A DNA stretch of 64,000 nt, from NCBI RefSeq assembly GCF_053078305.1, contig NZ_CP166879.1; one strand, given 5' to 3'. The position numbers and the translations under genes are program-made. The notes under the pieces were generated by a model. That model ran no database searches. It worked only from the letters and a program-made list of their open reading frames with translations, and was not told where the DNA came from. Of this stretch, positions 51,034 to 64,000 are shown piece after piece. Position 1 is the first letter of the stretch; each line of letters begins with the position of its first letter.

Positions 51034-52263
51034 TCAGGGCCAACGTTTAATGATGATGGATGTATTAATGCCGCCAAAGGCAAAGTTGTTACTCTGCAAA
51101 AACTCACAATCAACCTTGCGGGCTTCATGCATGATGTAATCCAGCGCGCCACAGTTCGGGTCTGGTTTATTCAGGTTTAGCGTAGGCGCAAACCAACCTT
51201 CGCGCATCATTTGCAGACTCATCCAGGCTTCGAGCGCGCCACAGGCACCAAGCGTATGACCAAAATAACTTTTCAGCGAGGAGAGCGGCACATTATCACC
51301 GTAAATGGTTGCTGTCGCCAGACTTTCTGCCATATCACCGCGATCGGTCGCCGTACCATGCGCTGAAATATAGCCGATATCTTGTGCGCTTAACCCGGCG
51401 ATTTTCAGCGATTGCTCCATACAATACTGCATGGTTTCGCGCTGCGGCTGGGTAATATGTGCCGCGTCGCAGTTCGTCGCAAAGCCGACGATTTCACCGT
51501 AAATGGTCGCGCCGCGCGCTTTGGCGTGCTCCAGTTCTTCGAGAATGAGCGTACCTGCGCCTTCACCAATCACCAGCCCGTCGCGGTTTTCATCGAACGG
51601 TGAAGGTGTGGTTTTCGGCGCATCATTGTGCTGGCTGGTGGCGAAAAGCGTATCAAATACCGCTGCTTCTGAAGGACATAACTCTTCGGCACCACCAGCA
51701 ACCATCACCGTTTGATAACCGTGGCGAATGGCTTCCCACGCATAACCGATTGCCTGGCTGCCGGAAGTACAGGCGCTGGAGGTTGGGATCACCCGCCCGC
51801 GCAGGCCGAAAAAGAGGCCAGTATTAACGGCGGTGGTGTGCGGCATCATCTGCACATAGGTGGTGCCAGTGATGTTATTGGTGTGCTTTTCCGTCAGCAT
51901 GGTGGCGAACTCGCTTACCGGGCCGGTACTGCCGGTCGATGAACCGTACGCAATGCCCGTTTCGCCGCTGGTTAATATCGGATCGCCAATCAACCCTGCC
52001 TGCTCTAACGCCAGCTCGCTGGCACGGGTCGACATTTGCGACACGCGGCCCATCGCACGGATACGCTTGCGGGTGTAGTGCTCCGGTAGCGTGAAATCAT
52101 CAACAGGCGCGCCAAGCAGGGTGTGCAGCCCGTCGTAGACCTGCCACTCCGGCATTTTGCGCACCGCATTTTCATACGCCAGTAAGCGTGCAGAAACGTC
52201 CTGCCAGTTTTCACCAAAGGCAGTCACGCCACCCATTCCTGTAATCACTACGCGACGTGTCAT
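51034..52263 (-). CDS. Beta-ketoacyl-ACP synthase (KAS I/II-like; ApeR-position)
   Basis: 409 aa; active-site Cys in PTSSACTSGS, His motifs HGTAT and GHTLGA. Confidence 0.8.
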   Translation of the reverse strand: MTRRVVITGMGGVTAFGENWQDVSARLLAYENAVRKMPEWQVYDGLHTLLGAPVDDFTLPEHYTRKRIRAMGRVSQMSTRASELALEQAGLIGDPILTSGETGIAYGSSTGSTGPVSEFATMLTEKHTNNITGTTYVQMMPHTTAVNTGLFFGLRGRVIPTSSACTSGSQAIGYAWEAIRHGYQTVMVAGGAEELCPSEAAVFDTLFATSQHNDAPKTTPSPFDENRDGLVIGEGAGTLILEELEHAKARGATIYGEIVGFATNCDAAHITQPQRETMQYCMEQSLKIAGLSAQDIGYISAHGTATDRGDMAESLATATIYGDNVPLSSLKSYFGHTLGACGALEAWMSLQMMREGWFAPTLNLNKPDPNCGALDYIMHEARKVDCEFLQSNNFAFGGINTSIIIKRWP

Positions 52264-52991
52264 AACATCCCTCCGTTGATGGAAATAACCTGGCGGGTGA
52301 CGTAACCCGCAATATCAGACATTAAATAACTGGCAAGCCCGGCAACTTCTTCCGCCTGGCCCATACGTTTCATGGGGATCATCGACATTGCCTCTTTCAG
52401 AGCGCTCTCTTCCATTTCGATCATCCCGGTATCAATAAGCCCTGGCGCGATGCAATTGACGGTGATTTTGCGCTTTGCGAGTTCGATAGCCAGCGCTTTT
52501 GTTGCGCCGATAATTCCGGCTTTGGCAGCGCTGTAATTCACCTGGCCGCGATTGCCCATTACGCCGGAAACCGAGGACAGCGTGATGATGCGCCCACCCT
52601 GGCGCGCGCCGATCATTGGCATAATGCACGGCTGAATGACGTTGTAGAAACTGTCGAGATTGGTGTGGATCACCGCATCCCAGTCGTCATCGCTTAAAGC
52701 CGGAAAAGCGGCATCGCGGGCGATCCCGGCGTTACTGACCACGCCGTACCAGGCACCGTGTTGCGCGATCTCATGCTCCAGCACTTCCCGACACTGTTCG
52801 CGGTTTGCGACGTCGAAACTGAGCAAACGCCCGTTACCCCCGTTGGCGACAATGGCATTCAGCGTTTCCTGAGCGCCTGTGGCGTCACGGTGATAGTGAA
52901 CGCCAATGTTAAAGCCGTCTGCCGCCAGTTGGCAGGCGATGGCGCGACCAATGCCTTTGCTGGCACCAGTAACCAGAACTGAACGACTCAT
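52260..52991 (-). CDS. 3-oxoacyl-ACP reductase (FabG-like SDR; ApeQ-position)
   Basis: 243 aa; TGASKGIG cofactor motif, YSAAK catalytic motif. Confidence 0.8.
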   Translation of the reverse strand: MSRSVLVTGASKGIGRAIACQLAADGFNIGVHYHRDATGAQETLNAIVANGGNGRLLSFDVANREQCREVLEHEIAQHGAWYGVVSNAGIARDAAFPALSDDDWDAVIHTNLDSFYNVIQPCIMPMIGARQGGRIITLSSVSGVMGNRGQVNYSAAKAGIIGATKALAIELAKRKITVNCIAPGLIDTGMIEMEESALKEAMSMIPMKRMGQAEEVAGLASYLMSDIAGYVTRQVISINGGML

Positions 52992-53455
52992 CAGGACGCT
53001 CCTTGTTGAAACAGGGTGGTAAGTTCTTCCGCGGTCGGCTGGAAGGTGTTAATGCGGCCCGTCGCCTCGCCGTCGTTGATGCTGCACTCAAAACTGCCGA
53101 AGCGATCGTCCTGCATCAGCAGTTTGACGGTAATGGTCAGCGTCTGGCCTGCGGGCAGAATGCCAGCGGCGCAAAGCAATTCACGCGCGCCCAGTATCAT
53201 CCCTAACTCAATACTGTTTTTGCCCTGCTGGTGGCGATGCCAGCCAGACCAGACGCCGACGGTTTGCGCCATCAGTTCAAGGGCAAACCAGCCAGGGAGA
53301 TTGCCGTCCGGGTCGAGAAACGGTGCCAGTACGCCACTGGGCGAAACCGTCACGCGGCACACCGCGCTGTCATCGCTGACGCTCACCACGTCTTCCAGCA
53401 GTAACATGGGCGCGTCGTGGGGCAGATAAGCGCCGGGGGATAAATAGTGGCTCAC
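52991..53455 (-). CDS. Hotdog-fold 3-hydroxyacyl-ACP dehydratase (ApeP-position)
   Basis: 154 aa; cluster context between reductase and synthase genes. Confidence 0.55.
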   Translation of the reverse strand: MSHYLSPGAYLPHDAPMLLLEDVVSVSDDSAVCRVTVSPSGVLAPFLDPDGNLPGWFALELMAQTVGVWSGWHRHQQGKNSIELGMILGARELLCAAGILPAGQTLTITVKLLMQDDRFGSFECSINDGEATGRINTFQPTAEELTTLFQQGAS

Positions 53456-62732: not shown

Positions 62733-62990
62733 TCAGGCACGTTGCGCAGCAATGAAAGAGGCCAGAGTGGCGACGGAGAAAAAGTGCTGACGCATCTCTT
62801 CGCTTTCCGCAGAGAGCACGATGCCGTACTCATTTTTTACTGCCAGTCCCAGTTCCAGGGCATCGATAGAGTCCAGCCCTAAACCGTCGCCAAACAGCGG
62901 CGCGTCGGTATCGATATCATCAGGCGTCAACTCGTCCAGATTGAGGGTGCTGATGATGAGGTTTTTAATTTCCAGATAAAGCGCTTGCAT
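62733..62990 (-). CDS. Acyl carrier protein
   Basis: 85 aa; motif GLDSIDALEL. Confidence 0.75.
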   Translation of the reverse strand: MQALYLEIKNLIISTLNLDELTPDDIDTDAPLFGDGLGLDSIDALELGLAVKNEYGIVLSAESEEMRQHFFSVATLASFIAAQRA

Positions 62991-63804
62991 TATTTATTCC
63001 TGAGAGAGGTAAACAACCTTGTTGTAATTGAAGCAAAAGATGCCGGTTTAACTGCCTTGCTGCCAGCGCCGGTTCTTGTGAAGTTGCATCGTAAAATTTA
63101 TTGATTTCAACCCGACCATGGACTGCAACCGTAAAAAACGGCCGGTCAGGTGGAACGTCATACCATTTACTTTGTTTATCCAGCAGATGCTCGCTACAGC
63201 CGATTGTCACGATGCGTAAATCGCTGGCGCAGCGCACGGCAATATTCGCCGCCCCGCGCTGCAGCGTCATTTTTTCACCGGGCTTCGTTCGCGTGCCTTC
63301 GGGGAAAATCAGGATAGTGTCACCCTGTGCCAGTCGCTGTTGGCAGCGGGGTAACAGGGTTTCAGCTTCGCTGTTGATTAAATAATCTGCCGCCCGCACG
63401 ACGCCGCCAAGAAAAGGATTTTTTAACAGCGCGCTTTTCACCAGGCAGTCAGTTTCTGGCATGACTGACGCCAGCAGCACGTAATCGATCAGCGTGGGAT
63501 GATTGGCTACGACGAGGCAACCGCGTTCCTGACGTAAAATTTCAGCGCCATCAATACGATAATCCAGCACGCCAAGCCCTTTCGCGACAGTTAAAAACAG
63601 GCGAAAACTGGCGGCAATGCTGCGACGCGCCAAACGACGGCGGCGGGAAGTATCCCACACTAAAACTAACAATATGTTAAACCACACGACAGAAAGCAGC
63701 AGGCCGCCGAGACCAAACAGGGCAAAACATAACCCGGTCATGACCAGTCGCCAGGTCCACTCCAGACGTGACATCAGCTTACTCATCTGTGGCTCCAGCG
63801 CCAT
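62965..63804 (-). CDS. Lysophospholipid acyltransferase (PlsC-like; ApeD-position)
   Basis: 279 aa; NHPTLID (HX4D) and FPEGTR motifs; N-terminal TM segment. Confidence 0.7.
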   Translation of the reverse strand: MALEPQMSKLMSRLEWTWRLVMTGLCFALFGLGGLLLSVVWFNILLVLVWDTSRRRRLARRSIAASFRLFLTVAKGLGVLDYRIDGAEILRQERGCLVVANHPTLIDYVLLASVMPETDCLVKSALLKNPFLGGVVRAADYLINSEAETLLPRCQQRLAQGDTILIFPEGTRTKPGEKMTLQRGAANIAVRCASDLRIVTIGCSEHLLDKQSKWYDVPPDRPFFTVAVHGRVEINKFYDATSQEPALAARQLNRHLLLQLQQGCLPLSGINNASALSGN

Positions 63805-64000
63805 TGCACGCGCTCGCCAGGCAGTGAAAATGTGTCTACATTTTGTAAATAGTGCTGTAAAAACAACATGCTTTGCGGCAGTGTTGTTTCATTGCCCGCA
63901 ATGGCTGACTGCGTTTCACATTGCCAGTCATCGCCAGCTTCAATCACCAGCGCGACGGCGTACGGCCAGGTCGGCATTTCTGATGGCAGTTGTGGGTGAT
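63783..64000 (-). CDS. 3' end of a further cluster gene, truncated by the window edge
   Basis: Minus-strand frame is open from the window edge to the stop at 63783; product cannot be assigned from 72 residues. Confidence 0.3.
   Translation of the reverse strand, partial: HPQLPSEMPTWPYAVALVIEAGDDWQCETQSAIAGNETTLPQSMLFLQHYLQNVDTFSLPGERVQWRWSHR

Follow-up and report, generated by a model that had tools for sequence, protein, structure and literature searches.

Genes upstream of acpT at the edge of an Escherichia coli sequence very probably belong to an aryl polyene cluster in the O-island 138 arrangement

What is encoded by the long run of genes for fatty-acid-synthase-like enzymes that leads into acpT in the DNA studied here, and does it belong to a system already described? 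The window, by which we mean the whole stretch of 64,000 nucleotides from contig NZ_CP166879.1 of assembly GCF_053078305.1, ends inside this run, whose acpT-proximal end is position 51034. An original prediction, made from the letters alone, had proposed a cluster of aryl-polyene-type architecture. We conclude with high confidence that the region comprises apeD-apeR and the 3' end of apeC from the aryl polyene (APE) cluster of E. coli, lying at the yhhT-acpT site in the arrangement of O-island 138 (OI-138). This is an already known system, and recognising the APE genes here brings no new biology. Two side observations may be new, namely a divergent apeG-apeH-apeI cassette that separates the two E. 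coli loci of this cluster, and a Gly274Cys replacement in ApeH; we found no mention of either in the open-access literature searched.

The list of open reading frames for positions 48000-64000 contains 15 intact, co-oriented genes on the minus strand between 51034 and 63786. All 15 translations, from ApeD to ApeR, are free of stops and frameshifts when read from RefSeq-type starts, as in near-identical genomes. The claim of 15 tightly packed genes directly upstream of acpT is thus borne out, and its boundary is exact: the apeR stop codon ends at position 51034. Missing from the earlier gene list was a sixteenth gene, apeC, whose final 72 or so codons occupy the terminal 218 bases of the window (63783-64000), the rest of the gene being cut off by the window end. 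Of the 15 junctions from apeD through apeR to acpT, ten are overlaps of 1 to 32 nucleotides (26 for apeD/apeE, 4 for G/H, 14 for H/I, 10 for I/J, 4 for K/L, 32 for L/M, 4 for M/N, 4 for O/P, 1 for P/Q and 4 for Q/R), and apeC overlaps apeD by another 4. The remaining five are gaps of 1 to 11 nucleotides (11 for apeE/apeF, 4 for F/G, 3 for J/K, 1 for N/O and 1 for apeR/acpT). This tight packing, with acpT (50445-51032) starting 1 nucleotide past the apeR stop codon, suggests that the ape genes and acpT may be transcribed and translated as one unit. A scan for promoters and terminators inside the cluster gave chance-level results, with 7 promoter-like sites for 8.0 expected and 23 terminator-like sites for 16.6 ± 4.4.

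Which known system does this gene order match? In strain CFT073, apeA-apeR correspond to c1204-c1186, with functions and order as in the window (PMC8253772, Table 1). The apeD-apeR order is shared with this cluster (c1186-c1204; MIBiG BGC0000836), and for 12 of the 15 proteins identity to the CFT073 counterpart is 96.4-100%; the exceptions are ApeI (71.8%), ApeH (66.4%) and ApeG (81.9%). The strength of the matches is far above chance, with family E-values down to 1e-234 and DNA 99.0% identical to annotated E. coli. The aryl-polyene-type architecture is confirmed in this way, and the proposed comparison with known APE clusters gave, besides the near-identity to CFT073, the Pfam domains ApeP-like and ApeI-like and APE enzymes as top structure matches. 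The enzyme set is also that of the Xenorhabdus doucetiae cluster, known from reconstitution in vitro, as judged from single proteins, although these come from another genus and are substantially diverged. More distant still is the cluster of Acinetobacter baumannii (for example, ApeO matches its homologue at 3e-82 over residues 57-386), whose ketosynthase, ketoreductase and acyl carrier protein are nevertheless homologous and provide the PDB entries 7F28, 7F27, 7CZC and 9LS6 among the top matches.

The order of functions given by the original prediction proved right gene by gene when the translations were compared with NCBIfam and Pfam. Reading from the window end towards acpT, the apeC fragment (63783-64000), part of a chain-length factor gene, matches positions 153-223 of the 223 of the Pfam model Ketoacyl-synt_2; its translation agrees with the ApeC C-termini of CFT073 and of E. 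coli LH50-c, and the full gene is present in relatives. Next comes apeD (62965-63786), for a lysophospholipid acyltransferase of 273 residues with a TIGR00530 (AGPAT-type) domain match, HX4D and FPEGTR motifs and 97.4% identity to CFT073 c1201. Two acyl carrier proteins follow, each with a DSID serine motif: ApeE (62733-62990; 85 residues; NF006617 at 90.8 bits, cut-off 70; PDB 9LS6 at 1.6e-25) and ApeF (62470-62721; 83 residues; NF003757 at 146 bits, cut-off 65). The gene apeG (61884-62465) encodes a membrane protein of 193 residues whose relatives bear the RefSeq name 'COG4648 family protein'. It has been called a COG4648 'pyrophosphatase', and neither Pfam nor NCBIfam matched it at the thresholds applied. 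The predicted adenylating aryl-acid:ACP ligase ApeH (60526-61887; 453 residues) has the Pfam AMP-binding domain and the A3 motif TSGSTGQPK; it is an O157-type allele, 97.6% identical to the O157:H7 protein.

ApeI (60186-60539; 117 residues), one partner of the dehydratase and again of the O157 type, is 100% identical to the proteins of LH50-c and O157:H7 TB21-1. It fits the Pfam ApeI-like model PF22818 end to end (1-119 of 119; 1.3e-37) and matches chain A of PDB 6QSR at 7e-39. The other partner, ApeP (52991-53455; 154 residues), matches Pfam ApeP-like PF22817 (8.7e-39) and chain B of the same entry (1.9e-47), and is 99.4% identical to CFT073. We take 6QSR to be the Xenorhabdus ApeI:ApeP complex, and it is said to come from Grammbitter et al. 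2019. Between these genes, apeJ (58519-60195) encodes a protein of 558 residues, 98.2% identical to CFT073 c1194, with an N-terminal glycosyltransferase family 2 domain that Pfam Glycos_transf_2 covers at residues 8-131 only and that has the DDGS and DAD motifs. About 300 residues at its C-terminus (58519-59450), a half that the literature calls an acyltransferase, were likewise matched by no family of Pfam or NCBIfam at these thresholds. The hot-dog thioesterase ApeK (58093-58515; 140 residues) matches Pfam 4HBT_2 (1e-14) and an NCBIfam family of the YbgC type, keeps the catalytic motif and is 100% identical to CFT073.

The next three genes would serve transport. ApeL (57491-58096; 201 residues) is a LolA-like periplasmic carrier, with matches to Pfam LolA and LolA_3 and a score below the cut-off for TIGR00547 (60 bits). 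ApeM (55204-57522; 772 residues) is an MMPL/RND-family exporter, with weak RND/MMPL (MMPL/HAE3-type) NCBIfam matches, the RefSeq name 'MMPL family transporter' and 96.9% identity to CFT073 c1191. ApeN (54623-55207; 194 residues) is a LolB-like DUF3261 lipoprotein (Pfam DUF3261 at 2.5e-37) with the lipobox LILTGC in its translation. The elongating ketosynthase ApeO (53452-54621; 389 residues, with an alternative GTG start at 54630; NF006618 at 557 bits) has the motif residues Cys155, His281 and His314 and matches 7F28 (AbApeO in the ApeO-ApeC structure of A. baumannii; 3e-82) and 6QSP (8e-175), the latter being the ApeO-ApeC structure of X. doucetiae (PMC8358021). The ketoreductase ApeQ (52260-52991; 243 residues) scores 476 bits with TIGR01831 for FabG2 (cut-off 339), matches 4IIU (1e-154) and 7CZC (1e-115), keeps the YSAAK motif and is 99.2% identical to CFT073. 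The initiating ketosynthase ApeR (51034-52263; 409 residues; NF006587 at 778 bits) finds its best PDB matches in 4EWG and 7F27 (AbApeR), has Cys164, His302 and His335 in place, and is 99.8% identical to CFT073 c1186. Last, AcpT, a 4'-phosphopantetheinyl transferase of 195 residues, scores 396 bits with the equivalog NF007676 (cut-off 174) over its full length (1-195 of 195).

The core genes of APE clusters have been defined as ApeO and ApeR, ApeE and ApeF, ApeC, ApeI and ApeP, ApeQ and ApeM (Grammbitter et al., bioRxiv 10.1101/2020.12.19.423268, Figure 1 legend). All but ApeC are present here in full, and of ApeC the last 72 or so codons are visible. Could the genes nevertheless serve another pathway, as fatty acid synthesis paralogues or in making polyunsaturated fatty acids, flexirubin or xanthomonadin? 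Taken singly, the enzymes are indeed of the fatty acid synthase type (FabF, FabG and FabZ families). Flexirubin and xanthomonadin clusters follow a related logic of the type II polyketide synthase or fatty acid synthase kind, with a LolA-like export protein, and weak flexirubin matches do occur (FlxB_rubin_SDR at 266 bits for a cut-off of 340; LolA2_flexi at 55 for 125). However, both of these scores fall under the curated cut-offs, and neither the 15 genes nor the visible part of apeC encode a halogenase, tyrosine ammonia-lyase or dialkylresorcinol function. The two APE-specific Pfam families and the near-identity to a cluster whose product is an aryl polyene make these readings extremely improbable. 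Flexirubin, xanthomonadin, polyunsaturated fatty acids and plain fatty acid synthesis are therefore rejected, and effectively refuted: the homology searches, which might have placed the genes in an unrelated lipid pathway, placed them with APE clusters instead.

The location of the cluster is as informative as its content. Several complete E. coli chromosomes match positions 50400-64000 at 99.0% identity, and at least 80% of this stretch is present in 820 of 5,426 genomes. LH50-c has 18 annotated genes between yhhT and acpT, for a lipoprotein, a methyltransferase, a chain-length factor and then the 15 described above; its AcpT is 100% identical to ours. The arrangement of O157:H7 TB21-1 is identical, with the same 18 genes and an AcpT of the same accession (WP_000285784.1), in agreement with the earlier suggestion of a match to the O157 island. 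In relatives, the cluster continues with the rest of apeC, then apeB and apeA, and an intergenic stretch of about 390 bp lies upstream, which agrees with the expectation that the cluster starts beyond 64000. The locus therefore resembles OI-138 (Z485x; ECs_4324-ECs_4341 in strain Sakai) in its yhhT...acpT-nikA site and its 18-gene order: acpT directly follows apeR in the window as it does at OI-138, the yhhT side lying beyond the window. It also shares the type of the apeG-apeH-apeI cassette (96.8% nucleotide identity), and the proteins are 97.4-100% identical (100% for ApeE, 98.8% for ApeF). The differences are allelic only, about 1-3% of the DNA, and include the Cys274 of ApeH in the window. 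The Sakai genes ECs_4324-4341 were called as the APE cluster BGC0000836 by antiSMASH (PMC9205054).

In K-12, as predicted, the cluster is absent: yhhT and acpT of MG1655 are 54 bp apart. The junction alignment shows that the last 19 nucleotides of apeR (CATTAAACGTTGGCCCTGA), the counterpart of 51034-51052 of the window, are retained directly before the acpT start codon (within 7916-7969 of the K-12 locus, L008). This 19-nucleotide scar indicates that K-12 lost the ape cluster by deletion. On the other side, the similarity of K-12 to strains that have the cluster breaks off in the final codons of yhhT, and the filler of about 34 nucleotides between yhhT and the apeR remnant finds no match anywhere in the complete cluster sequence. 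A study cited in PMC8253772 (De Lay & Cronan 2006) speaks in its title of a genome rearrangement that orphaned the AcpT of K-12 from its substrates in O157:H7, and by the same citation AcpT activates the ApeE and ApeF homologues of EDL933. The adjacency of apeR and acpT is kept in Escherichia sp. E1V33 (96% nucleotide identity) and Enterobacter sp. EA-1 (74%), at about 19600-21360 (L005 and L006, respectively), these being the only loci retrieved by an ApeH-alignment scan of species-representative genomes that used two poorly conserved N-terminal peptides as patterns. This conservation fits an old acpT-linked arrangement, in which AcpT may be the cluster's own phosphopantetheinyl transferase.

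The CFT073 cluster occupies a different place. It is found at 1.144-1.159 Mb, within an island rich in remnants of integrases and insertion sequences, while the acpT locus of this strain lacks the cluster and has yhhT and acpT adjacent. Its homology to the acpT-linked cluster runs exactly from the apeR stop codon to a point inside apeA (2728-17656 of the CFT073 locus, L004, against 9635-24570 of L001); the island copy is therefore without acpT, and the 5' end of its apeA and its promoter are not homologous.

A second difference lies within the clusters. Compared with CFT073 in windows of 200 nucleotides, the flanks are mostly 94-100% identical, apart from local drops to 89.5-92% in apeR and apeM, but identity falls to 58-79.5% in a segment at 60234-62033 that contains most of apeI, all of apeH and the 3' part of apeG. 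Synonymous-codon differences at identical residues reach 39% in apeI, 56% in apeH and 27% in apeG, against 1-9% elsewhere. Such a pattern points to a recombination cassette rather than to relaxed constraint. A sensitive cassette search located the ape cluster in 824 of the 5,426 complete E. coli genomes. A cassette at least 90% identical to that of the window is found in 569 records (best 97.9%), O157:H7 among them, and one about 67% identical in 256 records, which include CFT073-like, Nissle 1917 and ATCC 25922 strains. The acpT-apeR junction is present at full length in exactly 569 of the 5,426 genomes, O157:H7 included. Because both counts are 569, the simplest reading is that cassette type follows locus type, acpT-linked clusters carrying the window type and island copies the CFT073 type.

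Is this divergence compatible with the same product at both loci? The acpT-linked, O157-type version might make an aryl polyene chemically unlike that of CFT073 by means of its divergent ApeH, ApeI and part of ApeG. The near-saturated synonymous divergence of the cassette, the 66% and 72% identity of ApeH and ApeI to their counterparts and the clean split of cassette types between 569 genomes and 256 records are in line with this idea, and we found no product chemistry for the O157 type in the literature searched. Yet of the 151 positions at which the two E. coli ApeH alleles differ, just 16 belong to the 219 columns that other genera conserve, most of these changes being conservative. The alleles also have in common the adenylation motifs and long blocks of conserved residues at 179-209, 224-235 and 268-286. 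With so few differences in conserved columns and with shared adenylation motifs, we infer that both alleles would catalyse the same reaction, the loading of 4-hydroxybenzoate. Furthermore, ApeH homologues of other enterobacterial genera are 65-75% identical to either E. coli allele, a normal divergence for this family, and the window-type ApeI, as described above, fits its Pfam model throughout as well as 6QSR chain A. A chemically different product is thus rather improbable. The comparison with ApeR, for which a single protein cluster at 90% identity spans Klebsiella, Citrobacter, Raoultella, Pseudocitrobacter and Pantoea, suggests that ApeH is a fast-evolving member of the cluster. Within the operon, ApeR and ApeH show either very uneven evolutionary rates or an exchange of parts between genera.

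Several points weigh against our identification of an APE cluster here, or limit how far it can be carried. The promoter, apeA, apeB and most of apeC lie outside the window, and completeness would have to be judged from relatives. Co-transcription with acpT is argued from spacing alone. The roles assigned to ApeG and to the C-terminal part of ApeJ have weak annotation and no family match behind them. The chemically characterised cluster, that of CFT073, is the island copy, which is unlike this one in apeI, apeH, apeG, the 5' end of apeA, the promoter and acpT, and no product chemistry for the acpT-linked type was found in the literature searched. Finally, a cysteine at the near-invariant Gly274 in the A5 motif of ApeH could impair starter loading.

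This last point deserves scrutiny, as it raises the possibility that the cluster is inactive or crippled in this strain. Codon 274 of apeH (61066-61068, minus strand) reads TGC for Cys, where the family has the Gly of IYGSTE. In the family profile this position aligns with the Gly of the nonribosomal peptide synthetase core motif YGPTE, and Gly occupies it in 120 of 121 homologues. A direct PDB search with ApeH returned distant C-terminal matches only. The exact protein (WP_044186814.1, E. coli) is on record on just 2 contigs. None of the 5,426 complete genomes contains an identical copy of the 61 nucleotides around the codon, and just 50 matches with two mismatches came up. Nearby polymorphism blocks the seeding of this search, which gives no count of strains with Cys. 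Defects might also lie in the promoter and in the three genes (the rest of apeC, apeB and apeA) beyond the window. On the other side, one distant homologue (P0061, 69% identical) likewise carries Cys here, which may therefore be tolerated, all 15 visible genes are intact, and the other catalytic motifs are in place. We consider a crippled cluster unlikely.

How such a cluster would work can be outlined from the literature on the near-identical CFT073 and the homologous Xenorhabdus clusters. AcpT would activate the two carrier proteins, turning ApeE and ApeF into the holo form (PMC8253772, in a passage citing De Lay & Cronan). ApeH would adenylate 4-hydroxybenzoate and load it onto ApeE, ApeR would initiate extension with malonyl units, and the ketosynthase/chain-length-factor pair ApeO:ApeC would continue it. 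Each keto group would be reduced by ApeQ and dehydrated by ApeI:ApeP, and with no enoyl reduction the chain would become a conjugated polyene, whose ring ApeB would methylate. ApeK may assist release, after which ApeD and ApeJ would attach the polyene to a glycerophospho-sugar lipid, and ApeG, ApeM, ApeL and ApeN would move this pigment lipid to the outer membrane. There it would protect against oxidative stress and support biofilms.

An aryl polyene lipid, a yellow pigment of the membrane, is thus the probable product, given the near-identity to CFT073 and what is published on related clusters. In Xenorhabdus, the chromophore is identical to the CFT073 hydrolysis product, and the complete molecule is a glycerol-phosphate-GalNAc lipid whose sugar bears the aryl polyene and which has a further conjugated acyl chain; this chain is proposed to be made on ApeF, with attachment by ApeD and ApeJ and export by ApeG, ApeM, ApeL and ApeN (bioRxiv 10.1101/2020.12.19.423268). 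The genetics of the CFT073 cluster, its pigment and its roles in biofilms and oxidative stress have been described (PMC8253772), and APE lipids of Gram-negative bacteria have been reported to shield the cells from oxidative stress and to promote biofilms. An rpoS mutant of EDL933 shows higher expression of several OI-138 genes.

The remainder of the window, from 1 to 49992, is collinear with E. coli ET350 (99.06%), and nothing there bears on the ape cluster. It contains chuA and chuS for haem uptake, slp, gorA, prlC, two sugar phosphotransferase system (PTS) islets, uspA/B, pitA, rbbA, the toxin-antitoxin pair hicAB, a GntR/PTS/aldolase islet and nikREDCBA. The accessory PTS/aldolase islet sits after nikR, where K-12 has rhsB, and the G+C content dips to 0.425 around 44000-45000, at the end of this islet with the GntR regulator. 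The closest complete genomes are about 99.0% identical over the cluster and 98.9% over 25001-50000. None in the collection is higher, which argues that few complete genomes represent the source lineage.

What does the finding mean for the biology of E. coli? One could imagine two functionally distinct APE loci in this species, an ancestral one linked to acpT and one borne on an island, differing by their promoters and by a horizontally exchanged apeG-apeH-apeI cassette, with another starter or another processing of the chain and hence a different pigment lipid. We give this scheme a low probability; if it were true, the Gly274Cys of ApeH would further alter or abolish the choice of starter in this strain. 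Since the CFT073 copy lies behind a different promoter, is not linked to acpT and has its own version of the ApeG/H/I cassette, data obtained with it on regulation, essential genes and product should not be transferred unchecked to the acpT-linked copy. The latter is the commoner of the two in complete E. coli genomes, with 569 genomes against 256 records. For uropathogenic as well as enterohaemorrhagic E. coli, it has been suggested that APE pigment lipids act as fitness factors.

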